Of a stretch of 64,000 nt of DNA, positions 1 through 50,639 are shown one piece after another. The stretch covers positions 844,070 to 908,069 of the forward strand of contig NW_026782006.1 in NCBI RefSeq assembly GCF_031769215.1. The letters are read 5' to 3'. Each line of letters opens with the position of its first letter. Within the stretch, counting starts at the first letter, position 1. The notes beneath the pieces were generated by a model. The model made no database searches and was not told the origin of the DNA. It saw only the letters and a list, made by a program, of their open reading frames with translations. Position numbers and translations under genes: made by a program. The DNA comes from Ylistrum balloti (lineage: Eukaryota).

Positions 1-3000
1 CAATAACGGTAAGAAATACAAACATTTCCCGAAACTATTTCACTACAAGCCGTTATAACATTTCCCCGCGAAACTATTTCACTACAAGTCGTTTCCCCAC
101 GAAACTATTTCACTACAAGCCGTTATAACATTTCCCCGTGAAACTATATCACTACAAGCCGTTATAACATTTCCCCACGAAAATATTTCACTACAAGCCG
201 TTATAACGTTTCCCCGGGAAATTATTTCACTACAAGCCGTTATAACATTTCCCCACGAAACTATTTCACTGCAAGCCGTTATAACATTTCCCAATGAAAC
301 TATTTCACTACAAGCCGTTTTAATATTTCCCAATGAAACTATTTCACTACAAGCCGTTATAACATTTCCCCGCGAAACTATTTCACTACAAGCCGTTATA
401 ACATTTCCCCGCGAAACTATTTCACTACAAGCCGTTATAACATTTCCCCGCGAAACTATTTCACTACAAGCCGTTTCCCCACGAAACTATTTCACTACAA
501 GCCGTTATAACATTTCCCCGCGAAACTATTTCACTACAAGCCGTTATAACATTTCCCCGTAAAACTATTTCACTACCAGCCGTTATAACATTTCCCCGCG
601 AAACTATTTCACTACAAGCCGTTATAACATTTCCCAATGAAACTATTTCACTACAAGCCGTTTCCCCGTGAAATTATTTTACTACAAGCCGTTTTAATAT
701 TTCCCCGTGAAACTATTTCACTACAAGCCGTTATAACATTTCCCCACGAAACTATTTCACTACAAGCCGTTATAACATTTCCCCGCGAAACTATTTCACT
801 ACAAGCCGTTATAACATTTCCCCGTGAAACTATTTCACTACCAGCCGTTATAACATTTCCCCGCGAAACTATTTCACTACAAGCCGTTATAACATTTCCC
901 AATGAAACTATTTCACTACAAGCCGTTTCCCCGTGAAATTATTTTACTACAAGCCGTTTTAATATTTCCCCGCGAAACTATTTCACTACAAGCCGTTATA
1001 ACATTTCCCCACGAAACTATTTCACTACAAGCCGTTATAACATTTCCCAATGAAACTATTTCACTACAAGCCGTTATAACATTTCCCCGCGAAACTATTT
1101 CACTACAAGCCGTTATAACATTTCCCCGTGAAATTATTTCACTACAAGCCGTGAAACTATTTCACTACAAGCCGTTATAACATTTCCCAATGAAACTATT
1201 TCACTACAAGCCGTTATAACATTTCCCCGCGAAACTATTTCACTACAAGCCGTTATAACATTTCCCCGTGAAACTATTTCACTACAAGCCGTTATAACAT
1301 TTCCCCACGAAACTATTTCACTACAAGCCGTTATAACATTTCCCCGCGAAACTATTTCACTACAAGCCGTTATAACATTTCCCCACGAAACTATTTCACT
1401 ACAAGCCGTTATAACATTTCCCCGGGAAATTATTTCACTACAAGCCGTTATAACATTTCCCCGTGAAACTATTTCACTACAAGCCGTTATAACATTTCCC
1501 CGTGAAACTATTTCACTACAAGCCGTTATAACATTTCCCAATGAAACTATTTCACTACAAGCCGAAACTATTTCACTACAAGCCGTTATAACATTTCCCC
1601 GTGAAACTATTTCACTACAAGCCGTTATAACATTTCCCAATGAAACTATTTCACTACAAGCCGTTATAACATTTCCCCGCGAAACTATTTCACTACAAGC
1701 CGTTATAACATTTCCCCACGAAACTATTTCACTACAAGCCGTTATAACATTTCCCAATGAAACTATTTCACTACAAGCCGTTATAACATTTCCCCGCGAA
1801 ACTATTTCACTACAAGCCGTTATAACATTTCCCCGTGAAACTATTTCACTACAAGCCGTTTCCCCACGAAACTATTTCACTACCAGCCGTTATAACATTT
1901 CCCCGCGAAACTATTTCACTACAAGCCGTTATAACATTTCCCAATGAAACTATTTCACTACAAGCCGTTATAACATTTCCCCGTGAAACTATTTCACTAC
2001 AAGCCGTTATAACATGAAACTATTTCACTACAAGCCGTTATACGAAACTATTTCACTACAAGCCGTTATAACATTTCCCCACGAAACTATTTCACTGCAA
2101 GCCGTTATAACATTTCCCCGTGAAACTATTTCACTACAAGCCGTTATAACATTTCCCCGTGAAACTATTTCACTACAAGCCGTTTCCCCACGAAACTATT
2201 TCACTACAAGCCGTTATAATTTTCCCAGCGAAACTATTTCACTACAAGCCGTTATAACATTTCCCCGCGAAAATATTTCACTACAAGCCGTTATAACGTT
2301 TCCCCGTGAAACTATTTCACTACAAGCCGTTATAACATTTCCCAATGAAACTATTTCACTACAAGCCGTTATAACATTTCCCCACGAAACTATTTCACTA
2401 CCAGCCGTAATAACATTTCCCCGTGAAACTATTTCACTACCAGCCGTTATGAAACTATTTCACTAACGTTATAACATTTCCCAATGAAACTATTTCACTA
2501 CAAGCCGTTATAACCCCGACGAAACTATTTCACTACAAGCCGTTATAACATTTCCCGTTATAACATTTGAAACTATTTCACTACAAGCCGTTATAACAAC
2601 GAAACTATTTCACTACAAGCCGTTATAACATTTCACTACCCGTTATAACATTTCCCCACGAAACTATTTCACTACAAGCCGTTTCCCCACGAAACTATTT
2701 CACTACAAGCCGTTATAACGTTTCCCCGGGAAATTATTTCACTACAAGCCGTTATAACATTTCCCCGGGAAATTATTTCACTACAAGCCGTTATAACATT
2801 TCCCGACGAAACTATTTCACTGCAAGCCGTTATAACATTTCCCAATGAAACTATTTCACTACAAGCCGTTATAACATTTCCCCACGAAACTATTTCACTA
2901 CAAGCCGTTATAACATTTCCCAATGAAACTATTTCACTACAAGCCGTTATAACATTTCCCTATTTCACTACAAGCCGTTATAAATTTCCCAATGAAACGC

Positions 3001-4805
3001 GAAACTATTTCACTACAAGCCGTTATAACATTTCCCAAGCCATTATAACATTTCCCCGCGAAACTATTTCACTACAAGCCGTTATAACATTTCCCCGTGA
3101 AACTATTTCACTAAAAGCCGTTATAACATTTCCCGACGAAACTATTTCACTGCAAGCCGTTATAACATTTCCCCGCGAAACTATTTCACTACAAGCCGTA
3201 ATAACATTTCCCCGTGAAACTATTTCACTACAAGCCGTTATAACATTTCCCGACGAAACTATTTCACTACAAGCCGTTATAACATTTCCCAATGAAACTA
3301 TTTCACTACAAGCCGTAATAACATTTCCCCGTGAAACTATTTCACTACAAGCCGTTATAACATTTCCCAATGAAACTATTTCACTACAAGCCGTTATAAC
3401 ATTTCCCGACGAAACTATTTCACTGCAAGCCGTTATAACATTTCCCAATGAAACTATTTCACTACAAGCCGTTATAACATTTCCCCCCCCCCAGGAAACT
3501 ATTTCACTACAAGCCGTTATAACATTTCCCGACGAAACTATTTCACTACAAGCCGTTATAACATTTCCCCCCCCAGGAAACTATTTCACTACAAGCCGTT
3601 ATAACATTTCCCAACGAAACTATTTCACTACAAGCCGTTATAACATTTCCCCGTGAAACTATTTCACTACAAGCCGTTTCCCCACGAAACTATTTCACTA
3701 CAAGCCGTTATAACGTTTCCCAGCGAAACTATTTCACTGCAAGCCGTTATAACATTTCCCAATGAAACTATTTCACTACAAGCCGTTATAACATTTCACT
3801 ACCAGCCGTTATAACATTTCCCCGCGAAACTATTTCACTACAAGCCGTTATAACATTTCCCAATGAAACTATTTCACTACAAGCCGTTATAACATTTCCC
3901 CCCCAGGAAACTATTTCACTACAAGCCGTTATAACATTTCCCAATGAAACTATTTCACTACAAGCCGTTATAACATTTCCCCCCCCCCCAGGAAACTATT
4001 TCACTACAAGCCGTTATAACATTTCCCCCAAGGAAACTATTTCACTACAAGCCGTTATAACATTTCCCAATGAAACTATTTCACTACAAGCCGTTATAAC
4101 ATTTCCCAATGAAACTATTTCACTGCAAGCCGTTATAACATTTCCCCCCCAGGAAACTATTTCACTACAAGCCGTTATAACATTTCCCAATGAAACTATT
4201 TCACTACAAGCCGTTATAACATTTCCCGACGAAACTATTTCACTACAAGCCGTTATAACATTTCCCAATGAAACTATTTCACTGCAAGCCGTTATAACAT
4301 TTCTCCACGAAACTATTTCACTACAAGCCGTTATAACATTTCCCAATGAAACTATTTCACTAAAAGCCGTTATAACGTTTCCCCGCGAAACTATTTCACT
4401 ACAAGCCGTTATAACATTTCCCAATGAAACTATATCACTACAAGCCGTTATAACATTTCCCCGCGAAACTATTTCACTGCAAGCCGTTATAACATTTCCC
4501 AATGAAACTATTTCACTACAAGCTGTTATAACATTTCCCCGCGAAACTATTTCACTACAAGCCGTTATAACATTTCCCCACGAAACTATTTCACTACAAG
4601 CCGTTATAACATTTCCCCGCGAAACTATTTCACTACAAGCCGTTATAACATTTCCCCCACGAAATTATTTCACTACAAGCCGTTATAACATTTCTCCGGG
4701 AAATTATTTCGCTACAAGCCATTATAACATTTCCCCGTGAAACTATTTCACTACAAGCCGTTATAACATTTCCACGCGAAGCTATTTCATTACAAGCCGT
4801 TTTAA
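1..4805. repeat. Satellite A: ~39-bp unit (GAAACTATTTCACTACAAGCCGTTATAACATTTCCCCGC), ~120 tandem copies; includes a ~30-bp deletion variant (lacks TTATAACA...) and poly-C variants
   Basis: Direct reading: uninterrupted head-to-tail repetition. The 13-aa periodicity in the six-frame ORFs (GNVITACSEIVSR) equals 39 bp. Array ends ~4805, 69 bp before exon acceptor at 4873. Confidence 0.97.
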
Positions 4806-4873
4806 ATTGAAAACCAAATTTTGAATTTCTTTGACGCTAGATTGAATACTGATAAACGACGTGTATAATTCAG

Positions 4874-5014
4874 GTGGACCTCGGTAATGTGACCAGAGTG
4901 TTCGGCATAGCCACACAGAGCTACAGGTCGTCATCTTACTATACACTAACCTACCAAGTCACTTACAGTCGCGATGGCAACATCTTCACGAACGCAACTG
5001 GTGCCAGCGGAAAT
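4874..5014 (+). CDS. Gene A, penultimate coding exon: discoidin (F5/8 type C, FA58C) domain, central part (VDLGNVTRVFGIATQSYRSSSYYTLTYQVTYSRDGNIFTNATGASGN)
   Basis: Acceptor ..aattcAG at 4872-4873. Single open frame of 47 codons. Donor GTGAGT at 5015-5020. Translation carries discoidin hallmarks (VDLG ... gv.TQG ... Y.V.YS.DG..W). Confidence 0.8.
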
Positions 5015-5228
5015 GTGAGTTGTTCCTTTCTTCAGCTTTGAAGTAACTTCACTGCGTTAAAATTATTTTTCTTTTTTTTCTAATTTGTTATAATCATCAT
5101 TGAGGCTTACAATAATGTTATGATCGACATACTGAAATAACTGGTTTAGAAATCCATACTTTTTGTACTAGAAATCATAAATATATAATCCAGATAAACA
5201 ATAAATTAGATTCTATTTTAAATTGCAG

Positions 5229-5375
5229 ATTTTTTCCGCGAGTGCGAGTTACGACAGCATAATTAAACATGACTTGATGACGCCAGTTGTTGCCCGATTT
5301 GTCCGCTTCTATCCAAGATTGTGGCACACAGGAGGCAAGCCTGGACTCAGAGTGGAGGTGTACGGCTGCTACTGA
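5229..5375 (+). CDS. Gene A, terminal coding exon: discoidin domain C-terminus (IFSASASYDSIIKHDLMTPVVARFVRFYPRLWHTGGKPGLRVEVYGCY*)
   Basis: Acceptor ttaaattgcAG ending 5228, phase 0 continuous with previous exon. Motif ..ARFVRF.P..W....LRVEVYGC is the canonical FA58C C-terminus. TGA at 5373-5375. Confidence 0.8.
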   Translation: MFSASASYDSIIKHDLMTPVVARFVRFYPRLWHTGGKPGLRVEVYGCY

Positions 5376-5388
5376 AAAGTCCTTTATT

Positions 5389-5394
5389 AATAAA
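5389..5394 (+). promoter_or_regulatory. AATAAA polyadenylation signal 14 nt downstream of gene A stop
   Basis: Seen in sequence (cctttattAATAAAtttc). Position is appropriate for a 3' end of gene A. Confidence 0.5.
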
Positions 5395-8276
5395 TTTCTA
5401 TAAAAACATTCAGTCACTTGTGTTCAGTCATATATCCAACAACAAATGCCAGAGGAAATGGGGACCTGTTGTCGTATATTTATTAGTTCTCATGTTCTGA
5501 ATGGTATTGATGTAAGCAGCGATTTGAAACCGTCTCCTTTATGTGCCATTGACAGCGACAATTCACTATTCGACCAGTCGACGAAACCGTGTATTCTTCT
5601 GGCAAATTGATGGGACGCATTTTCCATCTAATTTGTTTCATATTCCTCCACTCAAAAAACTGTTGTCTAGACTCTGTCTTTAAAGGAAACAGACGTTTTT
5701 AGAAAACTCACAGAAATGCAGTTTTCAAAGACTGCTTGTGCAGAAGATAAAATCTTGAATACTTTTATATTTCCATATTATCAATTTCATCATGATATCT
5801 GTTAGATCTTTGTCCCTTTTCTCTTCTCAAAATCACTGTCAGAACAATTATGCACAACCAGGGAGTAAGACATTTTTTTATAAATACTAAAAGTGACAAC
5901 AATAAGAAAAATAGGGAAAATGACACAATAATTTTTTAAAACAGACTTAACCTTTATAATCCAAATATCTGCTGGTGTCGAACATAGATAATCCATCAAG
6001 TTCACAATGTACACAGAATCGATTCTGTAGAGGTTTGTTATGTTTCTGTATTGTGAAGCTCTTTTCAGTAGTTCACCGACGTAAATGTAAGATAAGAGTA
6101 CCAGCAAATTTAAAAGTGGACAGTGGATGCCATCTGGAAACAATGAAGTTAAAATTTGGCAGGCACACCTATAATCAAGTCTGTCGTCATCCCTGTATTT
6201 TATCAGGGAGATATCTTAGAAATTCCTAGAAATGAAATAACGGTAACCTCTTTAGAGCCATTATTCAAAATGGCTACAATTGTCAGTGTAGCTGGAAATG
6301 TACCATACTCATTTAAAACACATACAGAACAGGTTCATGATCTTTAAATCAGATCCTTTCATGGTTCTCCAGAGATGAACAGAGTAAGAAAAAATACTCT
6401 GGACAGACTAAGACATATACTCACAATTACAATATACTTTGGTCAAATGAAATAAACTGAATTCGAGTGCTTGTTACCTGATTGACAATATCAATCGGCC
6501 TGATTAAGTCCTTCAATTATTTTTCTCAAATTTCAATTTATAGATCTTGTCATTATGTATATTTCCATGTGATATAAGAAGTATTTTTTTCGATGATTGT
6601 GATCTTTAACCTGTTTACCATATAGAGAGCATGGTATTGCCTTGATTGACTGAACACATAGTAACTGTTAATTTAAGAATCATCCAAAATTTTAAGCTAC
6701 GAGAGCCTTCCATGAATTGGCCTAAATATTTGAACCCGTTAGGTTCATCATTCAGAATTAACATCTTGAAATGTAAGAACTTTTTTTATTATATTTCGTG
6801 TGTACAAAAGAACTAGGATTTCTTGATTATGAGGGATTGCCTATCTATACGTTATGCAATCTTTCCTAAGAAGAAATACTGTCTAACGTGCGACAATATT
6901 GCAATAATTTAAATTGCCTTTTAATGATAAGGATACGGACCTCCACTGTTAATATTTCTCGGGAATCCGTGTAAACCCAGATTTGATAGTACATTTTGTA
7001 TTTAGAATGGCAGTTCTCAGTTTTGACAAAGGCTCGGTTTAACAGCTAAACGAGCCCACAATAAAACGTTACATGGTTCCTGTGAAGCTTTTTGACAATC
7101 TTCAGCACAACTCTAAGCATTTCTTTAATAAGAACATTTGATATCTCCACTGTACATTACCATACCCCATTCCAAACAGAAAGAATACCTTCAGCTCTTG
7201 TTACGATAGCTTTCCAAGAAAGGTGGACGGTGGTACAAATATATGGTTGTGAACTATACTATTTTTCGTGAAATCAAAGAAGAAGTAAGAAGGCGAAATC
7301 TGGTTGACAACATCAGTTGAGTTTGAAGGCAAGACCGTATAACAGACTTTTGGCAAACCTTTGAAAACTAACTGTTCCCCTCTGTTGGTTGACTTATTTT
7401 TTATTTCATACGAGGCTGAATTTATCGAGGAACTTATCAAAACAGGCAACAAATACTTTGCAAAGTCGATCAGTTTCACTTTCAGAGATATCAAAGACAT
7501 CTTGTCTTTGAATCAGAAATTTATTGACCACGTCCATCGTATCAACCCACCAGAATTGGAAATCGAGGACACAACAGACTCTTCTACAATAGCTTTCTTA
7601 TCTCGATCTTTACCTACAATGAACCAACATGGACAGTTTGACATCAAACTGTATGATAAGCGTAATGATTTCAATTTCCCTCGAGTAAAATTTCCATTTC
7701 TGGATAGAAACATTCCTGCATCTAAACTATGGTGTACACATGTCGCAGTTGATTCGGCATGTTCCCATTATCAAGACGTTCGAGCAAGACGTTTTTACTG
7801 GCGGACAAACTCTCAACACATTGTTTCAAAAGATGCAGATTGATGGAAATAATGGGAAAGTTTTACGGTCGTCATAGTGATGTCAATGACAAATATTCTA
7901 TTTCCTTGTATGATATGAAGCTGGACGTGTTTGGATTGACCAAGATTTACATGGCGTGTGTCATCGATAAAGCAAAAGACCTTTACTCTTGCGGAACACC
8001 CTGTCTTATTTTCTTGTACTTTTTCAGAATCTCCGAGTATATCTTTCTTTTGTTCATAGCTTGCCCTAGTTTCATTGAATTTAAGATTGGTTTATGGTTA
8101 TGTTGACATGTTAGTCTTGATTCTTGAAGCAAACGACATCATTCGGGAGCACAAAGCATTCATTTTCCTAAATTTTATCCAACAAAAATCTATCTTTTAA
8201 AGTTCAAGTTGCTGAGCTATATAAACAACTAAAAACGAGACTCAATGAAGCATCCTTTGTTTTAATATAGAAACGA

Positions 8277-8429
8277 TCATTCAGACCCGTACACATGGCA
8301 TCCGTAGACTTCCACTTTTAAACAAGGTCTTCTTGAATAAGAGGTGGGATGGAAACGAATAAATCTAGCAACTATGGGCGTTGGTAGATTTTGGAAGTAC
8401 GGGCTTGATGAATATCTCGCAAGAAATGT
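8277..8429 (-). CDS. Gene B, terminal coding exon: discoidin domain C-terminus (TFLARYSSSPYFQNLPTPIVARFIRFHPTSYSRRPCLKVEVYGCHVYGSE*)
   Basis: Minus-strand acceptor tttcAG (revcomp of ctgaaa 8430-8435). Phase 0. Stop TGA = 8277-8279. Paralogous to gene A last exon (PxVARFxRFxP...xVEVYGC). Confidence 0.8.
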   Translation of the reverse strand, partial: TFLARYSSSPYFQNLPTPIVARFIRFHPTSYSRRPCLKVEVYGCHVYGSE

Positions 8430-9458
8430 CTGAAAGGTAATTAAATATACATACATAGTCATTGAATAAACGGTTCTCATCATTCAGCTCTTTAATCGTT
8501 GTATGAATAGGCTATGCCAATTACACTATACTGTACCAATTAAACATTAACAAACAACTAGTCGTTTGGAAAACTTCAGTAGAAATTTCATTATGTGATA
8601 AATAACACTTGGTGTTCCAAAAGTCGCTCACTATCATATACTGCTATATATAATTATGCGATCACGACCATTAATAACAGGTAACATCGTGACAATGTTT
8701 TAACTGCTTGTTGACATTAATTTCAGCAAAGAATTTCTAGAAGATCAGAAGATTGCTGACATACACAGAGAACATGACAACTTTCCGATTTTTTAAAATT
8801 ACAAAATGAAGCTGAAATTATTGGGGTGATTTGAGAGGCAAACGGTAGCTACTCTCTAACCCATACCATGATATTTATATACATAGCTTTTTTGTGTAAA
8901 TATCATCTTTATACGATAGGATGTACATAAACATATAGGTAATGGTTAGGCTACTCTCTAACCTATTGTATTGAAATTTGTTCAGACACATATTATTGCT
9001 GCAGTACTCTCTGAACCATTAAATTCATCTCTTTTAACCACAACTTTCATTAGATAAATAAGAAGATAAAAAAGTAACGAGATTTGCACGCAGTTATAAA
9101 TCGCCTCTATGTTCCAGATTGAAAGCGAAATACAAGATAGTGCACATCGGCATCTATATCAAAAAACCATTTCACCCGATTCTAATTTTCTTAAATCTCC
9201 TAAGTTTAAATCCTTTAAGTATCACTATGAGTCATAGTCAATAGTACCTATAGATACAAATCATCAATACAAATTCAGGATTAGATACAGTAAAGACAGA
9301 AACTAACTGCATCATACAGCTGTTTTGTCCTTCTAGTCAGTGATGCTGAGAGTCCAGATTTTGGTGTAGTTTAATTCATTATTTGGCTACACTACTGTGT
9401 TTAATCTAAAACGTGTATCGAAACGTGCCATTGTTAAAGACATCTTCCCTATACATAC

Positions 9459-9592
9459 ATAATCATTTCCGTTCGTGCCGTTGATTTTCTGGAAGATGTT
9501 ACCGTCAGTGCTGCAGGCTAGGGTGTAGGCTGTCGTGTACTGGGAACGAGAATAGCCTTGGGTCATCACTCTGTAGATCCTAGTCAGGTTAC
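9459..9592 (-). CDS. Gene B exon: discoidin domain central part (G)NLTRIYRVMTQGYSRSQYTTAYTLACSTDGNIFQKINGTNGNDY
   Basis: Minus acceptor ..cgacAG (9593-9594). Phase-1 entry completes Gly of WLQIDL|G. Donor GTATGT (9458-9453). Exon break falls after 'GN', as in gene A. Confidence 0.78.
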
Positions 9593-11165
9593 CTGTCGTG
9601 GTAATCGTAAATAATTTCTCTTTTACACTTAAAGGTGTATTCTTTCGTGCCACATTTTAATTCATTCGACCAGTTTAGAATGTACACAACTACTTGAAAT
9701 CGACCTAAATGATCTCATATATGAAAATTATGGAATTTATGGAAATATGAGACTGGTGCACTTCAACATCTAGATTTTGACTTTTCTTTCGATCACTTTG
9801 GATTTTCCTCAGTCTTCAATCTTCAGTGATTAAATATGCGAGTTATAAACATCTCGGACAATGGGAGATACTGTTCGTCAATAGTAATCCTCTTTTACAA
9901 TATAATTACGAGGTGCAAGGGTATAGCATTTTACAGTCGAGGACATCTCCAATTCTGACCTGTAGTCAAAAGTATGAGTCTTGATTTTCACCCTCAAGAT
10001 ATAGTTTAGCTGCAAATCAATATATCTGTTTCATTTTTTTTAAACTGAGTCAATCATTGAATTTAACTTTGATAAAAGCAATTTGAACTTAAATATCAAG
10101 TTTATGTTATTAACAAAAAAACATATTTAATTGAGTGTTTCGCACTAATCATCAGACTTCGTTCGCATTATCCACAGGGAAACTAAGTCCAGAAAGGTTT
10201 TATGAAATGCTGCTAGAGTTCCTACACAAACACGTCTAGTATTGATATTAATAATCAAATACAGATATAACATATCAATTATTGCAAAGTCGAATACAGT
10301 AAATACAATGGAAATATAAACCACTTTGGATAAGAGGAAACGCGTGTCCAATTTAGGCGAAAACAAACATTCATGTTTTCAAATGGAATCAGCGGATCAG
10401 ATCATACATCTATTGAAAAATTCAATTTACTGTGATGAAATAACCTTAAAACAATGCAACGTTTGTAAAATATTGAACTGAGTTTTTCCTCCATGTAACT
10501 TTTTAATTAATCTTATTTGAATACTGGAACGGTTCAGAAAACGTCATTGAAATAATTCAATATTAAAAAATACGAAATTGATTGAATTTTCGGGTAAGTG
10601 CACCTCCCAATCTGTTTTTGGACAGTCATCTAAAGTAGGTGTAGACTTATGTAGGAATAAGATATATTATCAACCAGATTATTTGAAGAAGGGAAACGTA
10701 CACGAGACACATAAGTGATAGTATCTTTTAAAACAAATAATAAGTCAGGTAAAGTATGCCAAAGAATGAATCATAGGAATCATATAGCTGCGAAGTCCTT
10801 CTGGGATTCGTCGGTGATGCTAAGGGCCTACATTTTGAAGCCTATGCGGCGACGGAGAAAACTACAAACTGATCGAAATATTAAAATCTAGGTCGGTGCT
10901 CCCTAATGCAATAAATTTCATAATTTCCATTGAACTGTCTGAATATTTCAGAAGAATTTTAAGTACACCTGTTAACGTCGTCAGGTGGCGCGCTGTGGTA
11001 AAACATTCGCTTCTCACTTAGCCGTCCGGGGTACGACAGGGAGTCACCAGCACGATTGTGTGGGTTTCCACACAAGACCATATCCACAGATAGAATTAGG
11101 TCAAGCCACATAAGAAAAACGTTCTTTTTTGTGTGTATACAGTACCATGTTCTTTCTCTACTTAC

Positions 11166-11333
11166 CTAAATCGATCTGGAGCCATGAGTTGGAGTCTTCT
11201 CCACACCATCCGTAGCCGCTGGCGGCGTATCTACCATTGGATGGCAAAAGCGTACTGTAGGTTTGGTAGGCAGTCATCTGAGCGTCGGGTATGGTGTACC
11301 GGTGCTGTACACCAACAGCCCGACTAGTACATG
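11166..11333 (-). CDS. Gene B exon: discoidin domain N-terminal part (A)CTSRAVGVQHRYTIPDAQMTAYQTYSTLLPSNGRYAASGYGWCGEDSNSWLQIDL
   Basis: Minus acceptor ttctAG (11334-11335). Phase 1 in, phase 1 out. Donor GTAAGT (11165-11160). Starts with Cys and ends WLQIDL, the discoidin N-terminal consensus. Confidence 0.8.
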
Positions 11334-11973
11334 CTAGAAAAAGAGGGAGAAAACGATATTTCTATCAAACATAGGAACTCTTCTTCGTTTGAAAATCTGA
11401 GTTTGAAACAGAAAAAGGATTTCTATGTCCAATTCATTGTTTTAATGATGTGACGTATCACTATGTCACTGAACAAATTTCTTGCTAAATGATATACAGT
11501 ATAATGTATCATACAACAGGATGATCAGACACCAAACCAGACATAAAAGGTAGAACAATATGAACGTAAAGAGATGTACCATACCATTCACAAAAAAAAA
11601 AAAAAAAACCCTCGGATGAAAGGATGCAGCCCAAATTGACATCTCCGCAAAAGTGGTAATTTCAGAATATTCGGTAAAATAGTCTACATTACGTTTATTA
11701 CAGACTATGCCTTTATAAGTCTGCCTCCCTAAAGTTTTGATATATACATATAATTTAAGATATTGAAAAGTTTGGTCTTGGAATGAAATCACAAAAGACA
11801 AAGTGAATACATGTAGGCGATGTCTCGTGGGAACTGATCTTTCTCGCTAAGTGTTTTATATGTAGAGTTAATTGACAAATCATCCAGCAACCCCATCCAT
11901 CCAAAGTTTCGGAAATCCGCTCCCCCTTTTTCTACAAAAATCTTGACTCCAGTACTCACGCTGTTTTACATAC

Positions 11974-12087
11974 CGTATTCACACTTTTGGCCTCCGAAGG
12001 TTATTGTACAGTTACAGGTAAACCCTGCCTTCGTATCCGTACACTCTCCGTTGTTTTGACAAGGATTCGACGTACAATGATCAAATT
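11974..12087 (-). CDS. Gene B exon: single EGF-like module (E)FDHCTSNPCQNNGECTDTKAGFTCNCTITFGGQKCEY
   Basis: Minus acceptor tttcAG (12088-12089). Donor GTATGT (11973-11968). Symmetric phase-1 exon of 114 nt. Six Cys with CxC and G(F/Y)xG spacing typical of EGF. Confidence 0.85.
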
Positions 12088-12293
12088 CTGAAATATAGAT
12101 TCAATTTACTTATCGTTGAAAAAACAGCACGTAGTAACCACATCTTTAATTAACCATATTATTATACATGTATAAATTACCAAACACATAAATTGAAGAT
12201 TTCTATTTTATCTGATAACAAAATAATTTTACAGAAATAATCATTTTCCACCACAATATATTGTCATAACAGTAAAGACAAGATACATTATAC

Positions 12294-12483
12294 CTAATGT
12301 TTCCATCCTGAAAACAGCATCGGCGTATTTATTATGCGAGTCTAATGCACGGATTGTGAATGAGTAGCTATTGGTTTCATCAGGAACCTCGCCCACCACG
12401 TGACCGGTTGTGCCGTTCAGCTTGATACCTGGTGGAAGATCTCCGGCGACAAGCGCGAAGGTGATGGTACCGCCTTCTGGATC
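12294..12483 (-). CDS. Gene B exon: dystroglycan-type cadherin-like / putative Ig (CADG, He_PIG) domain core (DPEGGTITFALVAGDLPPGIKLNGTTGHVVGEVPDETNSYSFTIRALDSHNKYADAVFRMETL)
   Basis: Only one open frame. Phase 0 in, phase 1 out (190 nt), matching the phase-1 EGF exon. Motif F.DPeG..lTF.l..G.LP.Gl.Ln..TG.l.G.P...d.gsY.f.i.A.D. Donor GTATAA is weak. Confidence 0.65.
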
Positions 12484-12767
12484 CTCAAAGCGAATTCATA
12501 TTTGTGGTATTTGTAAGTTGCTTCTAACGGTTACATTGAAAATAATACAATTCTACGACCACGGTATGGGATCGCTAAACATATATCTGTGTTTACATTG
12601 AATGCTTCACATATTCATGATAGTCGGATGTTATTTTAGTAGAAGACATAAATTTTTTAGAAATCTAGCAATAAAATCTAGTCGAGGAATTCCGACCAGC
12701 TGTAGTATCTAGTGTACTAACGTCACATTCACTTTTGTGTACTTTCAGTGTATTGTATAAGTAGTAC

Positions 12768-12869
12768 CTCTGCTTCAAGTTTCAAGTCAACCTTCTCTTC
12801 TCCTTTAAAGGTGCCGAAGAATCCAACATGAGCATGCGCAGACCAAACAGGTGGTAAACTAGTAGCAAT
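12768..12869 (-). CDS. Gene B candidate exon: N-terminal part of the CADG-like domain (IATSLPPVWSAHAHVGFFGTFKGEEKVDLKLEAE)
   Basis: Polypyrimidine tract + AG (tttttttaaatgtttaAG). Phase 0/0 of 102 nt. Donor AG|GTACTA. Joins in frame to the DPEGG exon. Acceptor choice is ambiguous (alternative AG 11 nt downstream). Confidence 0.45.
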
Positions 12870-13489
12870 CTTAAACATTTAAAAAAATCCATTTAAACAA
12901 CCACTTAAACACGGACAAAAAAAGTTTTTCTATAGACGGTTTCATCCAAATTTAGCAGTGTGTTTACTATCAAAAAGGATGTTCCTCCCATTAAGTGAAT
13001 TTTACAGTTTAACCATAACAAAATCTAGAATAATTGTCCTGTACAAGTAAACATACAAAGCAGATCGTCATTGTCGAATTACAGAACAGCATACATAACA
13101 ATGGGCCAGTCAGCGTGAACGGTCACCTGACTATAAAGATCTATAAATAACAGTAACAGTGGTAGTGGGAACAATGATTAAAGGATTAAAACAAATATCA
13201 TATTAACTATTTAGTTAATAAAAAATACCAACACTGTTCCAGTTTAGCTCCCCTTCCCCCTTCACTGCTTAATGATGCCATTGGAAATGAAGAAGCAGTT
13301 TTGTGTTTTGATTTCGGAACGCCAATAAAAATATGTAAATTTTATCAGAACTATGGCAGGATCAATCACTAAAATTTTTAGATCAATCTCACTTGTGGAA
13401 CTTGAGGATTTTAAAAAAAAATATGTGTTGTTGAAGAAATGAAAGATTTTGCAAACATGTTACAAAATGCCTCCCATTGCTTCCATGTT

Positions 13490-13720
13490 GAACACCCTCT
13501 CATTATTCCTACCAATTTTCAGCTGAATAGTATCAGTGGAACAGGAGAAGAAGTAAACAATTTTCAGACGGTGACTGACCCTTAAAATTAGACCAGTGGT
13601 TACATCTAAGGATCAATCCTGGCAAGTTCCAACTGAATACTGCCGGTAGAACTGGACAGGAAGTTTAATATGTGAAGACTGGGAATCACCACCACTTAAC
13701 TCACTTCATTTCTTGTTGGA
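13490..13720. mobile_element. SINE/MITE-like dispersed element: two ~90-bp related half-units (..CCAACTGAATA...GTGGAACAGGAGAAGAAGT..CAGACGGTGACTGACC)
   Basis: Same motif architecture recurs at 28850-29230 (TGGTACTGGAGAAGAAGTTTAAG...GGATTTCAGACTGACC; CCAACTCAATAGCAGCAGTGGGACTGGAGAA). Confidence 0.4.
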
Positions 13721-13870
13721 TATAGAGAATATTCCGCAAAGTTACTAGACTCAGGTCAGTTGTGTGGTATGGTTGAGACCATCGATCTCGCGTACCACAA
13801 GTATGATACAGAGAAGATATATGAGCTCTGAGTACAATATATCACCTGGGAATGGATAAAGTAATATTAC

Positions 13871-13954
13871 CTGGATAATGTGACGTAGGTCTACGTCCTC
13901 CAAGTACACAGAACCTCCATTTGGTCCGGGCAGTACGTGCAAGTCCTGGGTCAT
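13871..13954 (-). CDS. Gene B candidate 5' coding exon (MTQDLHVLPGPNGGSVYLEDVDLRHIIQ) immediately abutting the 33-bp satellite
   Basis: Strong donor CAG|GTAATA at 13870. Phase 0 compatible with 12869 exon. Start may be the ATG at 13954 or an acceptor inside the satellite (ttggcAG|gctgg). Confidence 0.35.
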
Positions 13955-13956
13955 AC

Positions 13957-16565
13957 GACCAGCCTGCCAACAAAGGATAGATTTAAAATGACCAGCCTGC
14001 CAACAAAGGATAGACTTACACTGACAAGCCTGCCAACAAAGGACAGACTTACAACGACAAGCCTGCCAACAATGGATAGACTTACAATGACCAGCCTGCC
14101 AACAAAGGATAGACTTACAACAAGCAGCCTGTCAACAAAGGATAGACTTACAACAACCAGCCTGCCAACAAAGGATAGATTTACAACAACCAGCCTGCCA
14201 ACAAAGGATAGGCTTACAATGACCAGCCTGCCAACAAAGGATAGACTTACAACAACCACCTGCCAACAAAGGATAGACTTACAACAACCAGCCTGCCAAC
14301 AAAGGATAGACTTACAACAACCAGCCTGCCAACAAAGGATAGATGTACATCAACCAGCCTGTCAACAAAGGATAGATTTACAACAACCAGCCTGCCAACA
14401 AAGGATAGACTTACAACAACCAGCCTGCCAACAAAGGATAGATGTACATCAACCAGCCTGTCAACAAAGGATAGACTTACAACAACCAGCCTGCCAACAA
14501 AGGATAGACTTACAACAACCAGCCTGCCAACAAAGGATAGATGTACATCAACCAGCCTGCCAACAAAGGATAGATGTACATCAACCAGCCTGCCAACAAA
14601 GGATAGATGTACATCAACCAGCCTGTCAACAAAGGATAGACTTACAATGACCAGCCTGCCAACAAAGGATAGACTTACAACAAGCAGCCTGTCAACAAAG
14701 GATAGACTTACAACAACAAGCCTGCCAACAAAGGATAGACTTACAACAACCAGCCTGCCAACAAAGGATAGATGTACATCAACCAGCCTGCCAACAAAGG
14801 ATAGATGTACATCAACCAGCCTGTCAACAAAGGATAGACTTACAATGACCAGCCTGCCAACAAAGGATAGACTTACAACAAGCAGCCTGTCAACAAAGGA
14901 TAGACTTACAACAACCAGCCTGCCAACAAAGGATAGATTTACAACAACCAGCCTGCCAACAAAGGATAGATTTACAACAACCAGCCTGCCAACAAAGGAT
15001 AGATTTACATCAACCAGCCTGCCAACAAAGGATAGACTTACAACAACCAGCCTGCCAACAAAGGATAGATGTACATCAACCAGCCTGTCAACAAAGGATA
15101 GATGTACATCAACCAGCCTGTCAACAAAGGATAGACTTACAATGACCAGCCTGCCAACAAAGGATAGACTTACAATGACCAGCCTGTCAACAAAGAATAG
15201 ACTTACAACAACCAGCCTGCCAACAAAGGATAGATTTACAACAACCAGCCTGCCAACAAAGGATAGGCTTACAATGACCAGCCTGCCAACAAAGGATAGA
15301 CTTACAACAACCACCTGCCAACAAAGGATAGACTTACAACAACCAGCCTGTCAACAAAGGATAGACTTACAACAACCAGCCTGCCAACAAAGGATAGATG
15401 TACATCAACCAGCCTGTCAACAAAGGATAGACTTACAATGACCAGCCTGCCAACAAAGGATAGACTTACAACAAGCAGCCTGTCAACAAAGGATAGACTT
15501 ACAACAACCAGCCTGCCAACAAAGGATAGATTTACAACAACCAGCCTGCCAACAAAGGATAGGCTTACAATGACCAGCCTGCCAACAAAGGATAGACTTA
15601 CAACAACCACCTGCCAACAAAGGATAGACTTACAACAACCAGCCTGCCAACAAAGGATAGACTTACAACAACCACCTGCCAACAAAGGATAGACTTACAA
15701 CAACCAGCCTGTCAACAAAGGATAGACTTACAACAACCAGCCTGCCAACAAAGGATAGATGTACATCAACCAGCCTGTCAACAAAGGATAGACTTACAAT
15801 GACCAGCCTGCCAACAAAGGATAGACTTACAACAAGCAGCCTGTCAACAAAGGATAGACTTACAACAACCAGCCTGCCAACAAAGGATAGATTTACAACA
15901 ACCAGCCTGCCAACAAAGGATAGGCTTACAATGACCAGCCTGCCAACAAAGGATAGACTTACAACAACCACCTGCCAACAAAGGATAGACTTACAACAAC
16001 CAGCCTGCCAACAAAGGATAGACTTACAACAACCAGCCTGCCAACAAAGGATAGATTTACAACAACCAGCCTGCCAACAAAGGATAGATGTACATCAACC
16101 AGCCTGTCAACAAAGGATAGATTTACAACAACCAGCCTGCCAACAAAGGATAGACTTACAATGACCAGCCTGCCAACAAAGAATAGATTTACCACAACCA
16201 GCCTGCCAACAAAGGATAGATTACAACAACCAGCCTACAACAACCAGCCTGCCAACAAAGGATAGACTTACAACAACCACCTGCCAACAAAGGATAGATT
16301 TACAACAACCAGCCTGTCAACAAAGGATAGACTTACAACAACCAGCCTGCCAGCAAAGGATAGACTTACAATGACCAGCCTGCCAACACAGGATAGATGT
16401 ACATCAACCAGCCTGCCTACAAAGGATAGACTTACAATGACCAGCCTGCCAACAAAGGATAGACTTACAATGACCAGCCTGCCAACAAAGGATAGACTTA
16501 CAACAACCAGCCTGCCAACAATGGATAGATTTACATCAACCAGCCTGTTAACAAAGGAAAGACTC
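13957..16565. repeat. Satellite B: 33-bp unit (CCAGCCTGCCAACAAAGGATAGACTTACAACAA), ~79 copies
   Basis: Direct reading. 11-aa periodic ORFs (TSLPTKDRLTT / VVVSLSFVGRL) on both strands are repeat artefacts. Confidence 0.97.
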
Positions 16566-17118
16566 TAGTGAGGATGTAGTTAACGTCTATATCTATACAA
16601 AGAATGTACACACACGTGAATCTTTTGTTTTTATTTAATTAGATATAAGCTTTCTTTTACCCTTTTTTATCAGAAGTATACTTGCTAGTATTCAATCCAA
16701 TTAACAATTTGGCTTCAGAGTTTTCAATGTGCTTCTATAAATAGGCAAACATGTTTCCTTGTAGAATAAACATCGTGATTTATTGTACTATCCGATGATA
16801 TCGATATAACGTAAAATATCGTAGGTCGTCAGGTTTGAGTTCAGTAACGTATTAATAAGGCACAATACACCTTGTTTATTGAATATCAAAATATTAGATG
16901 CTGACAGATACAACTAAGAAGCGTCCTGTTATCGTAGATCGTAAAGTTATCCAATAACACCTCTGGGAGTCTGCAATGATTATAAGGAAGGTATTACGTT
17001 CAAGCATGTTGTTTCTGGTTATCTCTCTCGGGAAATTTCAGACATTCAAGTTACCTGTAAGGAAACGTTACCGTCATCCTGGGCCGCTACGACGACACTC
17101 GGGTATCTGATGTCGAAA

Positions 17119-17700
17119 ACTCTGAAATGGGAAACCTTATTGTAGAACATGACAACTTGATGTCTAACATTCTGAAATGGGAAACCTTATTATAGAACAT
17201 GACAACTTGATGTCTAACATTCTGAAATGGGAAACCTTATTATAGAACATGACAACTTGATGTCTAACATTCTGAAATGGGAAACCTTATTATAGAACAT
17301 GACAACTTGATGTCTAACATTCTGAAATGGGAAACCTTATTATAGAACATGACAACTTGGTGTCTAACATTCTGAAATGGGAAACCTTATTATAGAACAT
17401 GACAACTTGATGTCTAACATTCTGAAATGGGAAACCTTATTATAGAACATGACAACTTGGTGTCTAACATTCTGAAATGGAAACCTTATTATAGAACATG
17501 ACAACTTGATGTCTAACATTCTGAAATGGAAAACCTCTGAAATAGGAAACTTTGTTGTAGAACATGACCACGTGATATCTAACATCCTGAAATGGGAAAC
17601 CTTGTTGTAGAACATGACCACGTGATATCTAACATCCTGAAATGGGAAACCTTGTTGTAGAACATGGCTACGTGATGTCAAACTCTCCGATATAGGAAAT
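17119..17700. repeat. Satellite C: 50-bp unit (TCTGAAATGGGAAACCTTATTATAGAACATGACAACTTGATGTCTAACAT), ~11 copies, decaying to ~17800
   Basis: Unit start positions 17121, 17171, 17221 ... read directly. Confidence 0.9.
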
Positions 17701-18474
17701 TTTTTTTATAAAGCATGACTACGTGGTGTCAAATACTGCGAAATGAGAAACATTGTAAATCACAAGTACGTGATGCCTAACTGTCCGAAATGGGAAACCT
17801 TAGTTCAGGGTAAAACCTTATCAAACAAACAAAAATGGGAAAGACTACTCCGATTACACAACCACCATTGTCATGGTCAGTTTATGTACATCTCACATTC
17901 AATATGGGGCTCCGTTTTAGTAATTCTTCACAATGTGAAAAATTTGTTTTCGAATTACCCCTAAATATAAGTAAAGAAAATCAGACGATTCCATTGTTTT
18001 CCTTTCGATCCGCTGTCTCTGGCCAATTTCTCTCTCTGACACTTTCACTCTCACTTAGTACATCCAGGCATAACAGATATTTTGTTTATAATTGTTCTAT
18101 TTACATAGTTTGAATTTTCGTTCTTGAAAATTTAGTTTTAGAGTATCCAGAGTAAACACTGAAAAGCATTCTGTCGAAACGTGCTCTTTGGAGTACTTTT
18201 ATCAGCTCTCGGGATGGCTTTGAGAAATACGTTGTGAAATATATCGAAAGGAGACAAAAGAAAATGAATCCGCAAATGACGTACAAGTACATTGTAGATT
18301 GTGGAGACATCTCGGTTCTTCTCTTCATTCATTATTACTACGGCTTATATTTAAAGGAAAAACGAGTAAAGAAATATAGAAATAGTAAATAAATGTGTTC
18401 CTTTCCTAACACAGGCTGTACTGTAAAGCACACGTAATAGAACAGTTTCTGATGGAAAAACTTACGTCTCTTTT

Positions 18475-18625
18475 CTATTCATAGGAGGAATACAAAGATT
18501 GTACAAAAGACACACAAGTGAATAACACCTTTTAATACAAAGTTTGTACAAAAGACACACAAGTGAATAACACCTTTAAATACAAGGATTGTACGAAAGA
18601 CACACAAGTAATTACCATTTTTCAA
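18475..18625. repeat. Short tandem repeat, ~48-bp unit x3 (..TGTACAAAAGACACACAAGTGAATAACACCTTT..)
   Basis: Direct reading. Confidence 0.8.
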
Positions 18626-18689
18626 TGGTCAAATATTAGATAGAGTAAAGAATAACAATGAATTCCACTGCATCATACTGCTGTTTCCT

Positions 18690-18850
18690 CCTTCCAGGAC
18701 TCGTCAGTGAAGCTACATCATACTGCTGTTTCCTCCTTCCAGGACTCGTCAGTGATGCTACGTCATACTGCTGTTTCCTCCTTCCAGGACTCGTCAGTGA
18801 TTCTACATCATACTGCTGTTTCCTCCTTCCAGGACTCGTCAGTGATTTTC
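18690..18850. repeat. Short tandem repeat, 42-bp unit x4 (CTACATCATACTGCTGTTTCCTCCTTCCAGGACTCGTCAGTGA)
   Basis: Direct reading. Confidence 0.85.
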
Positions 18851-18959
18851 CTGAATTTTGAAGCCTAGGAGGCGACTGAGGAAAATCTAAAGTGATTGAA
18901 TTTTTTTCAAATCTAGACGGGTGCAGCAACCCCATAATTAAATAAATTGGCAGTAGGGG

Positions 18960-21900
18960 AAAGTGAAGGCCTATTACACATGTTGTCATTAAGCCTATTA
19001 CACGACATGTTGTCAGTATGGCTACTACATGGACATGTTGTCAGTATGCCTATTACATGACACGTTGTCATTAAGCCTATTACATGACATGTTGCCATTA
19101 TGCCTATTGCATGACATGTTGCCATTATGCCTATTGCATGACATGTTGTCAGTATGCCTATTATATGACATTTGTCAATAAGCCTATTACATGATATGTT
19201 GTCAGTATGCCTATTACATGGACACGTTGTCATTAAGCCTATTACATGACACGTTGTCATTATGTCTATTACATGACACGTTGTCAGTATGCCTATTACA
19301 TGGACACGTTGTCATTAAGCCTATTACATGACATGATGTCTTTAAGCCTATTACATGACATGTTGTCAGTATGCCTATTACATGACATGTTGTCATTAAG
19401 CCTATTACATGAAATGTTGTCATTATTCATATTTCATGACACGTTATCATTATGCCTGTTTTATGACACGTTGTCAGTATGCCTATTACAGGACACGTTG
19501 TCATTAAGCCTATTACAGGACATGATGTCTTTAAGCCTATTACATGGACACGTTGTCATTAAGCCTATTACATGACACGTTGTCATTAAGCCTATTACAT
19601 GACATGTTGTCAGTATGGCTATTGCATGACACGTTGTCATTAAGCCAATTATATGATATGTTGTCATAAAGCCTATTACATGACATGTTGTCATTATGTT
19701 TAGTACATGAAACGTTGTTGTGTATTACCTGATATGTAGTCATTATGCCTATTACATGGACACGTTGTCAATAAGCCTATTACATGACACGTTGTCATTA
19801 AGCCTATTACATGACACGTTGTCATTATGTTTATTACATGACATGTTGTCAGTATGGCTATTACATGACACGTTGTCATTAAGGCTATTTCATGACATGT
19901 TGTCAGTATGGCTATTACATGACATGATGTCTTTAAGCCTATTACATGACATGTTGTCAGTATGCCTATTACATGACATGTTGTCATTAAGCCTATTACA
20001 TTACACGTTGTTATTAAGCATATTACATGACGCGTTGTCATTAAGCCTATTACATGACATGATGTCAGTATGCCTATTATATGACATTTGTCAATAAGCC
20101 TATTACATGATATGTTGTCAGTATGCCTATTACATGGACACGTTGTCATTAAGCCTATTACATGACACGTTGTCATTAAGCCTATTACATGACACGTCAT
20201 TAATCCTATTACATGACACGTTGTCATTTAGCCTAGTTCATGACATGTTGTCAGTATGCCTATTACATAACATGTTGTCATTAAGCCTATTACATGATAT
20301 GTTGTTAGTATGGCTATTACATGACATGATGTCTTTAAGCCTATTACATGACATGTTGTCATTAAGCCTATTACATGGACACGATTGTCATTAAGCCTAT
20401 TACATGACATGCCTTTAAGCCTATTACATGGACACGTTGTTATTATGTCTATTACATGACATGTTGTCAGTATGGCTATTACATGACATGATGTCTTTAA
20501 GGCTATCACATGACATGTTGTCATTAAGCCTATTACATCACACGTTGTCATTAAGCCTATTACATGAAACGTTGTTGTCTATTACATGACACGTTGTCAT
20601 TTAGTCTATTACATGACATGATGTCTTTAAGCCTATTAAATGACATGTTGTCATTATGTCTATTACATGACATGTTGTCAGTATGGCTATTACATGACAT
20701 GATGCATTTAAGCCTATTACATGATATGTTGTCATTATGCCAATTGCATGACACGTTGTCAGTATGCCTATTACATGACACGTTGTCATTAAGCCTATTA
20801 CATGACACGTTGTAAGTATGCCTATTACATGACAAGTTGTCATTAAGCCTATTACATGACATGTTGTCAGTATGCCTATTACATGACACGTTGTCATTAA
20901 GCCTATTACATGACACGTTGTTGTCCATTACATGACACGTTGTCATTAAGCCTATTATATGACATGTTGTCATTAAGTCTATTACATGACATGATGTCTT
21001 TAAGCCTATTAAATGACACGTTGTTATTAAGCCTATTACATGACGCGTTGTCATTAAGCCTATTACATGACATGTTGTCATTAAGCCTATTACATTACAC
21101 GTTGTTATTAAGCATATTACATGACGCGTTGTCATTAAGTCTATTACATGACATGATGTCTTTAAGCCTATTAAATGACACGTTGTTATTAAGCCTATTA
21201 CATGACGCGTTGTCATTAAGCCTATTACATGACATGTTGTCATTAAGCCTATTACATGGACACGTTGTTATTAAGCCTATTACATGACGCGTTGTCATTA
21301 AGTCTATTACATGACATGATGTCTTTAAGCCTATTACATGACATGATGCCTTTAAGCCTATTAATGACATGTTGTCATTAAGCCCATTAGATGACACGTT
21401 GTCATTAAGCCTATTACATGATATGTTGTCAGTATGGCTATTACATGACATGATGTCTTTAAGCCTATTACATGATATGTTGTCAGTATGGCTATTACAT
21501 GACATGATGTCTTTAAGCCTATTAAATGACACGTTGTTATTAAACCTATTACATGACGCGTTGTCATTATGTCTATTACATGATATGTTGTCAGTATGGC
21601 TATTACATGACATGATGTCTTTAAGCCTATTACATGACACGTTGTCATTAAGCCTATTACATGATATATTGTCATTATGTCTATTACATGACATGATGTC
21701 TATAAGCCTATTACATGACACGTTGTCATTAAGCCTATTACACGACACGTTGTCATTATGTCTATTACATGACATGTTGTCAGTATGGCTATTACATGAC
21801 ATGATGTCTTTAAGGCTATTACATGACATGTTGTCATTAAGCCTATTACATGACATGTTGTCAGTATGTCTATTACATGACATGTTGTCAGTATGCCTAT

Positions 21901-22110
21901 TACATGACATGTTGTCATTAAGCCTATTACATGGACACGTTGTTATTAAGCCTATTACATGACGCGTTGTCATTAAGTCTATTACATGACATGTTGTCAG
22001 TATGGCTATTACATGACTTGATGTCTTTAAGCCTATAACATGACATGATGCCTTTAAGCCTATTAATGACATGTTGTCATTAAGCCCATTACATGAAATG
22101 TTTGTCATTT
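18960..22110. repeat. Satellite F: 30-bp unit (ATTACATGACACGTTGTCATTAAGCCTATT), ~105 copies; unit contains imperfect palindrome TGACA-CGT-TGTCA
   Basis: 10-aa periodic ORFs (HVIGLMTTCH etc.). Direct reading. Confidence 0.97.
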
Positions 22111-49475: not shown

Positions 49476-49658
49476 TGATTTTAATTAACCCACCATCTAT
49501 TAGATGGTGGGCTAAAAATGTGTTAATATGACTTTTTCTCTGTGTCAGTTAAAACTGTAAACTGAGGTCAGTATACTGGAAGATTTTCCTTACATTTACA
49601 TGTCAAGTGTACAGACATGTGTACAAAGAAGAATAAATATAAACATTGTTTTACATAC

Positions 49659-50595: not shown

Positions 50596-50639
50596 CTGCA
50601 ATAGAGAAACAACAATATATTTCTAAAAATACATACAGG

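Follow-up and report, generated by a model that had tools for sequence, protein, structure and literature searches.

EDIL3 (Del-1) and MFGE8 (lactadherin) of vertebrates are secreted proteins which join EGF and F5/8 type C (discoidin) domains, and both carry an RGD integrin-binding motif in an EGF domain. Their architecture consists of two or three EGF domains followed by two discoidin domains (C1 and C2). EDIL3, for example, has three domains of the EGF type and two of the discoidin type (PMC9290575). Molluscs have proteins of approximately 350–365 amino acids with He_PIG, EGF, and discoidin domains, the genes of which are clustered in the genome; literature searches for a functional study of this mollusc family found none. 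With regard to genomic arrangement, a comparable situation is seen in the tandem or alternating-orientation gene-family clusters of animal genomes, in which paralogs are also located side by side.

The DNA analyzed here is a window (the whole stretch) of 64,000 nt from the scallop Ylistrum balloti, in which two such genes face each other: gene A on the plus strand (RefSeq XP_060065433.1, P0171, 352 amino acids) and gene B on the minus strand (RefSeq XP_060065434.1, P0001, 355 amino acids). Unlike EDIL3 and MFGE8, neither protein has the arrangement of several EGF domains followed by two discoidin domains; each contains a single EGF and a single discoidin domain, plus He_PIG and an extra N-terminal region. 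The RGD motif is absent from P0171, P0001, and eight relatives. Matches outside molluscs reach 33–34% identity and cover only 38–54% of the query, and are thus partial rather than full-length. The RefSeq name "EDIL3-like" mirrors domain content, not orthology. On the other hand, the mollusc He_PIG-EGF-discoidin proteins share length, domain order, nine exons, and genomic clustering with the scallop pair, and include clear orthologs of A and B (73–81% identity). Compared with these relatives, the introns of Y. balloti are much longer and filled with minisatellites, but nothing essential differs. We consider it very likely (probability about 0.9) that the locus contains two intact convergent genes which belong to two ancient subfamilies of a mollusc-wide cluster.

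Structure and arrangement of the two genes

Exons 8 and 9 of gene A are located at positions 4874–5014 and 5229–5375 (plus strand), and their translation matches residues 258–352 of XP_060065433.1 exactly. Exon 8 encodes the middle of the discoidin domain (residues 258–304), whereas exon 9, the last one, encodes residues 305–352 and the stop codon TGA (5373–5375). The splice signals are AG at 4872–4873, a GT donor at 5015–5016, and AG at 5227–5228. The acceptor of exon 8 has an identical position in Pecten maximus, Argopecten irradians, and Mizuhopecten yessoensis, and exon 9 shows approximately 80% amino-acid identity to the orthologous exon of P. maximus. A motif scan of the sequence found a candidate polyadenylation signal (AATAAA, 5389–5394, plus strand) 14 nt past the stop.

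No coding sequence for residues 1–257 of gene A was found anywhere within the window; therefore, exons 1–7 lie beyond a satellite with a 39-bp unit, which Tandem Repeats Finder placed at approximately 30–4805. This agrees with the earlier reading made from the sequence alone (hereafter the sequence-only reading), which had located the 5′ part of gene A beyond the satellite: the C-terminus of XP_060065433.1 is exactly these 95 residues, and the first 257 are encoded outside the window. The satellite is simply intronic. It lies inside intron 7, the 3′ part of which occupies positions 1–4873 (plus strand; acceptor ttcag/GTGGAC at 4873/4874) and which has a length of at least 4.87 kb, compared with approximately 1.1 kb for the homologous intron of P. 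maximus.

With only two exons in view and at least 4.8 kb of satellite DNA beginning 68 nt upstream of exon 8, the plus-strand exons might also be the remnant of a truncated pseudogene whose 5′ part was destroyed or displaced by the satellite. A direct word-index search with the 95 residues, which returned nothing, appeared to point in the same direction; however, the search had missed a true match, as P0171, in which exactly these residues occur, is present in the database searched. A HMMER search with the 95 residues yielded 973 matches, mostly multi-discoidin proteins, among which the orthologs did not surface. Several observations argue against a pseudogene. The reading frame is intact, the splice sites are canonical and conserved in position in three other genera, and the exons correspond exactly to the C-terminal end of a RefSeq model of 352 amino acids, itself colinear with its orthologs. 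The dN/dS values against orthologs were 0.07–0.19 for exons 8–9 of gene A and 0.13 for gene B, indicating that both genes are under purifying selection. In addition, gene B, which is exact to its own RefSeq model, likewise has introns of 3–5 kb filled with minisatellites, and long introns of this kind are not by themselves a sign of broken genes in this genome. The frame of gene A stops six codons upstream of 4874, which could be taken as truncation by the satellite; this was rejected since the orthologs have an intron exactly there. Overall, a pseudogene origin of these exons appears quite unlikely. In P. maximus, nucleotide alignment revealed a 1-nt insertion in exon 8 of the gene A ortholog of that assembly, which could be an assembly error or could mean that the gene is dispensable there. 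Such alignment also resolved the structure of this ortholog, for which brute-force exon assembly had given 432 models.

Spliced mapping of XP_060065434.1 was exact and placed the nine exons of gene B between 22439 and 8277 on the minus strand, with all eight introns of the GT-AG type. Exon 1 (22393–22439) contains the ATG and a hydrophobic, signal-like peptide (MIVLLLLVTATAADD), and is followed by exons 2 (17055–17121), 3 (13871–13963), and 4 (12768–12869). Arrays of 33-bp and 50-bp units in the exon 1–3 part of the gene contain repeated decoy acceptors. Based on Pfam and spliced mapping, exon 5 (12294–12483) encodes the He_PIG (dystroglycan-type cadherin-like Ig) domain and exon 6 (11974–12087) the EGF domain. 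The discoidin domain is distributed over exon 7 (11166–11333, N-terminal part, ending ...WLQIDL/G in phase 1), exon 8 (9459–9592, middle), and exon 9 (8277–8429, C-terminal part), the last of which encodes the C-terminus ...LKVEVYGCHVYGSE and the stop codon (8279–8277). The sequence-only reading had given the 3′ end of gene B correctly as 8277, but its 5′ limit of 12483 has to be moved to 22439. A candidate polyadenylation signal (ATTAAA, 8261–8266, minus strand) was noticed by motif scan 11 nt past the stop, and additional AATAAA motifs occur 752 and 872 nt downstream.

The stop codons of the two genes face each other across a spacer of 2,901 nt (5376–8276), as expected from the proposed tail-to-tail order with stops approximately 2.9 kb apart. 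The two protein accessions are consecutive and come from the same 1.73-Mb contig. The same convergent pair was found in P. maximus (stops 1.35 kb apart), M. yessoensis (3.8 kb), and A. irradians (0.77 kb); together with Y. balloti, at least four scallop genera keep A and B as tail-to-tail neighbors. Pfam scans of four other open reading frames (7361–7843, 7759–8106, 37884–38399, and 49596–50738) gave no domain match. The region is predicted to contain the 3′ portions of two Y. balloti genes, both of them complete, functional, and transcribed convergently.

Domains and predicted function of the proteins

The joined 95 residues of gene A match F5_F8_type_C with an E-value of 5.7e-15 (56 bits), and gene B matches it with an E-value of 2.3e-18 (67 bits; cut-off 28.2 in both cases). 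Both genes are above the gathering score of Pfam PF00754, in support of the discoidin identity suggested for them. Apart from the short length of the exons, nothing favors the view that these are random open reading frames with a superficial likeness to discoidin motifs; in view of these E-values and the 100% identity of the exons to database proteins, we dismiss this explanation entirely. In the full-length proteins, He_PIG, EGF, and F5_F8_type_C were each found in both A and B, the last with scores of 70.5 and 66 bits. Each protein, approximately 355 amino acids in length, begins with a signal-like N-terminus, continues with an N-terminal region that is poorly modelled, and then contains the Ig-like He_PIG domain and single EGF and F5/8 type C domains.

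The AlphaFold model of gene B has a mean pLDDT of 84. Its discoidin domain shows the expected beta-sandwich fold and can be overlaid on those of factor VIII C2, lactadherin C2, and neuropilin b1 (TM 0.83–0.87, rmsd 1.5–2.1 Å). Two cysteines at the start and end of this domain (C206 and C349) are invariant across 36 family members. Judging from their hydrophobic N-termini, A and B are probably secreted, and the modelled discoidin fold suggests ligand binding. Considering the domain content, the most likely function is extracellular binding or adhesion via the discoidin loops.

Two ancient subfamilies and their intron positions

A and B are 46% identical in an alignment of 96 columns (E = 3e-25) and 43% identical along their full length, and are paralogous as whole genes. 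Synonymous differences between the two have reached saturation (pS = 0.82), which is consistent with the view that the duplication was not recent. To the sequence-only reading, the pair had looked like an inverted duplication, either of a whole gene or of a 3′ segment encoding the discoidin domain; such a local, lineage-specific event would explain why A and B adjoin in inverted orientation with the same domain order and seven of eight intron positions in common. However, the idea of a duplicated 3′ segment is rejected, both proteins are full length, and no inverted nucleotide repeat linking A and B was found, only chance-looking inverted matches of 20–34 nt. Furthermore, A and B each have their own orthologs in three other scallop genera (73–81% identity), and deeper orthologs of both are present in other molluscs.

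The phylogenetic relationships were examined with a neighbor-joining tree of 40 family members (molluscs only, midpoint rooting, bootstrap via a numpy implementation). The A-type and B-type proteins were separated by a bipartition with 96% bootstrap support, and the scallop A clade received 100%. Members from chiton, Haliotis, Solemya, and other bivalves fall on both sides of this bipartition. A and B never appeared as sisters (0% bootstrap). Gene A is closer to A-type proteins of chiton, clam, and mussel (50–60% identity) than to B (46%), and its nearest scallop paralog is the P0011 lineage with 53% identity, whereas B shows only 43%. With separate subfamilies, saturated synonymous sites, and no inverted DNA repeat, a local inverted duplication is very improbable. 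We propose instead that A and B are members of two ancient subfamilies (A-type and B-type) of a tandem gene cluster across molluscs, and that the A/B split would be older than the chiton-conchiferan divergence.

The exon structure provides further information on these subfamilies. Identical intron positions had been reported for the two genes, and this is correct in position and phase for seven of the eight introns; intron 7 is offset by 10 nt. It interrupts gene A as LQ/VDLG in phase 0 and gene B as VDL/G in phase 1, and its position divides A-type from B-type genes in scallops, mussel, abalone, and chiton. The acceptor of gene A at 4873/4874 precedes VDLG as in Pecten, Argopecten, Mizuhopecten, and the chiton protein P0006, whereas the phase 1 position in gene B represents the B-type state, and gene B groups with B-type proteins. 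P0005 of Mizuhopecten, which shares the motif IFSAS with gene A, was considered as its ortholog and rejected, being B-type by both tree and intron 7. Similarly, the suggestion that both genes are split after GN in phase 0 holds with regard to phase and homology, as the introns between exons 8 and 9 precede the same column of the family alignment, but only exon 8 of gene A ends directly after GN (AAT/gtgagt). In gene B it ends two codons later, after GNDY (TAT/gtatgt); relative to gene B, gene A lacks two codons at this exon end. Both subfamilies have the same nine-exon structure, apart from intron 7, whose displacement by 10 nt distinguishes A from B.

Gene cluster in molluscs and its meaning

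Compared with ordinary gene-family clusters, in which the orientation of paralogs alternates, the scallop arrangement has no special feature. In Argopecten, for instance, the order is A-type (+), B-type (−), A (+), B (−). The two subfamilies are unusually old and still adjoin in chiton, mussel, and scallops. A-type and B-type genes are arranged head-to-head in chiton and mussel, as well as in scallops, where the P0189-type gene is paired with gene A in this way. They would have remained neighbors from before the chiton-conchiferan divergence. This lasting adjacency could mean that they form a co-regulated or co-functioning module, such as a secreted heteromeric complex with an adhesion or lectin role, instead of a tandem array that was retained passively, a speculative idea to which we assign a low probability. 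If it were true, the founding duplication would be cleanly marked by a rare genomic change, namely the 10-nt slide of intron 7.

The observation holds true but is unremarkable: the genes are already RefSeq models, their arrangement is that of an ordinary gene-family cluster, and its importance beyond annotation is slight. For the biology of the family, it means that the cluster formed by these genes extends across molluscs, that its A/B split is old, and that its nine-exon structure has changed very little, with the slide of intron 7 serving as a simple marker of the two subfamilies.

Two convergent discoidin genes

Gene A, on the plus strand, is represented in the window by exon 8 (4874–5014; borders ttcag/GTG and AAT/gtgagt) and exon 9 (5229–5375; acceptor ttgcag/ATT, TGA at 5373–5375). 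Both are open and together encode 95 aa that match Pfam F5_F8_type_C (E = 5.7e-15, profile positions 39–127 of 127). Using the assembled Pecten maximus ortholog as a query, protein search reached a 352-aa Ylistrum balloti protein (P0171, XP_060065433.1) from the same contig, whose final 95 residues are identical to these two exons. Coding sequence for its residues 1–257 was not found anywhere within the 64 kb, indicating that exons 1–7 lie upstream of position 1 and, hence, that the 39-bp satellite at 30–4805 is inside intron 7. The sequence-only reading had already placed the 5′ part of gene A beyond this satellite.

Read upstream from 4874, the gene A frame stays open for only six codons, which could suggest truncation at that point. 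This possibility was rejected, because an intron occupies exactly this point in the orthologs of Pecten, Argopecten, and Mizuhopecten: their exon 7 ends with ...YLQ/gt and exon 8 begins with ag/GTG GAT CTT GGT (VDLG). The exon 8 donor, GGAAAT/gt(a/g)agt, is likewise kept among orthologs. A satellite-filled intron is normal here, since gene B, which is exact to its own RefSeq model, has arrays in introns 1 (3.1 kb) and 2 (2.6 kb). The dN/dS values of the two gene A exons are 0.07 and 0.19 (vs. Argopecten and Mizuhopecten). Judging from the sequence, gene A is taken to be a working gene.

Exon 8 of the Pecten maximus ortholog carries a 1-nt insertion compared with Y. balloti (approximately 18300–18330 of locus L001), which puts it out of frame; in place of the conserved ...NTF.DAAGVVGN, RefSeq protein P0169 has ...NTFLGRRRSCRN. 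Either the assembly is wrong at this point or the lesion is genuine.

Gene B lies on the minus strand and its C-terminus, ...LKVEVYGCHVYGSE, ends with a stop codon at 8277. Its last five exons match He_PIG (E = 7.3e-9), EGF (1e-5), and F5_F8_type_C (2.3e-18), and the protein query returned a 100% database match (P0001, XP_060065434.1; the accession directly follows that of gene A). Exact spliced mapping of the matched protein placed nine exons (22439–22393, 17121–17055, 13963–13871, 12869–12768, 12483–12294, 12087–11974, 11333–11166, 9592–9459, and 8429–8277), with all introns GT-AG; thus, gene B is almost twice the length of the interval first read. Its dN/dS is 0.13 (vs. Pecten and Argopecten).

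The discoidin C-terminal parts of the two proteins share 46% identity (E = 3e-25), and their facing stop codons are separated by 2,901 nt. Together with the Pfam matches of both, this upholds the original observation of a convergent pair of paralogous discoidin genes; with P0171 and P0001 both full-length proteins, the paralogs are whole genes. The spacer contains a 160-aa ORF (7361–7843, plus strand; motif LYDKRNDFNFPRVKFPFLDRNIP) that continues in another frame to 8106 and has no Pfam match. It resembles a repeated ORF that occurs widely in invertebrate genomes, and is probably a transposon remnant, frameshifted here.

Minisatellites and other ORFs

Minisatellites fill approximately 61% of the window (~39 kb), as some twenty different arrays with units of 26–156 bp; individual arrays measure between ~0.1 kb and 4.9 kb, and several are inside introns of genes A and B. 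Gene B intron 2 carries about 79 tandem copies of a 33-bp unit (13958–16564, minus-strand view), which consists of the true exon-3 acceptor and first exon nucleotides (tcctttgttggcag/GCTGGT) and also has a GTAAGT donor-like hexamer. The real exon-3 splice site (13963/13964) is the last unit of this array, so dozens of decoy 3′ splice sites lie directly upstream of the used one. In a 50-bp array of intron 1 (17108–17699), the repeated sequence is the exon-2 acceptor together with a divergent version of the initial ~14 exon nucleotides (ggtttcccatttcag/A..GTT..GACATCA), and the array ends at the real acceptor (17121/17122).

Two further ORFs have no Pfam match: a 380-aa, possibly coding ORF with proline-rich units (PPPPPPKSAMAFTPA...) that runs through a 48-bp repeat (49596–50738, minus strand), and a 171-aa ORF (37884–38399, plus strand) that resembles the C-terminal portion of ORF2 from a non-LTR retrotransposon.

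Domain organization and possible role

In both full-length proteins, the N-terminus is hydrophobic and ~60 residues are poorly modelled and lack a Pfam match; then come He_PIG, a single EGF, and a single discoidin domain. For gene B, the mean pLDDT of the AlphaFold model is 84 (>90 from residue ~100 on), and the modelled discoidin domain can be superposed on factor VIII C2, lactadherin C2, and neuropilin b1 (TM 0.83–0.87). Orthology to EDIL3 or MFGE8 was considered and rejected: EDIL3 contains three EGF and two discoidin domains (PMC9290575), whereas the scallop proteins have one of each, and no RGD motif was found in them. Based on their domains, they are most likely secreted extracellular binding or adhesion proteins. 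No published study of this mollusc family was found in the literature searched.

The discoidin domains of scallop B-type proteins (P0001, P0002, P0004, and P0005) have an extra cysteine pair, located in gene B at residues 248 (WCG) and 341 (PCLKVE), which may form a second disulfide. Neither A-type proteins nor the chiton B-type protein have these two cysteines.

Conservation, introns, and age of the pair

The tail-to-tail arrangement was also observed in three other scallops: Pecten maximus (A ortholog 17843–21907, minus strand, and B ortholog 10001–16495, plus strand, of L001; stops 1.35 kb apart), Mizuhopecten yessoensis (P0172, plus, and the B ortholog, minus; 3.8 kb), and Argopecten irradians (P0170, plus, and P0002, minus; 0.77 kb). 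The full Argopecten order is P0178 (an A-type gene, plus), a 362-aa gene (minus), A (plus), and B (minus). A-type and B-type genes also adjoin in Mytilus and in chiton, where P0010 (minus) is head-to-head with P0006 (plus); the Haliotis locus sampled has three B-type genes.

Ten family genes, each mapped to its locus, share a constant nine-exon structure. Introns 1–6 occupy the same alignment columns and phases (2, 0, 0, 0, 1, 1), and intron 8 always directly precedes the column beginning [T/I/V]F..., in phase 0. Exon 8 is two codons shorter at its end in the Ylistrum and Argopecten A genes than in Mizuhopecten A, the chiton A-type genes, and most genes of the B-type; Pecten A has the same GN/gt donor as the former two. 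All A-type genes examined (scallop A, Argopecten P0178, chiton P0006 and its neighbor, and one Mytilus gene) have intron 7 at LQ/VDLG (phase 0). In the B-type genes examined (scallop B, P0005, a P0189-type gene, Mytilus P0188, Haliotis P0016, and chiton P0010), it always lies 10 nt further on, at VDL/G (phase 1), a small intron slide tracking the tree. Identical intron positions, as first proposed from intron 8, therefore hold for that intron and introns 1–6 but not for intron 7.

A local inverted duplication had been proposed as the origin of the pair. In a neighbor-joining tree of 40 family members (300 bootstrap replicates), the scallop A and scallop B clades each had 100% support, and a single bipartition (96%) separated A-type from B-type sequences, with chiton (P0006/P0010), Haliotis, Solemya, and other bivalve members on both sides. 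A and B were sisters in none of the 300 replicates. Between the 95 aa of gene A and A-type proteins from other molluscs, identity is 50–60%, against 46% with gene B. Synonymous sites compared between A and B have reached saturation (pS = 0.82), and no inverted nucleotide repeat joining them was found. Thus, the pair did not arise by local inverted duplication in scallops. The split is indeed old, as had been suggested.

Genes A and B derive from a split older than crown molluscs, after which further duplications produced A and P0011 within the A-type and B and P0189/P0191 within the B-type subfamily. We infer that the alternating Argopecten order fits duplication of a two-gene unit. Both genes were previously annotated, and, as conserved gene clusters go, their arrangement is ordinary.
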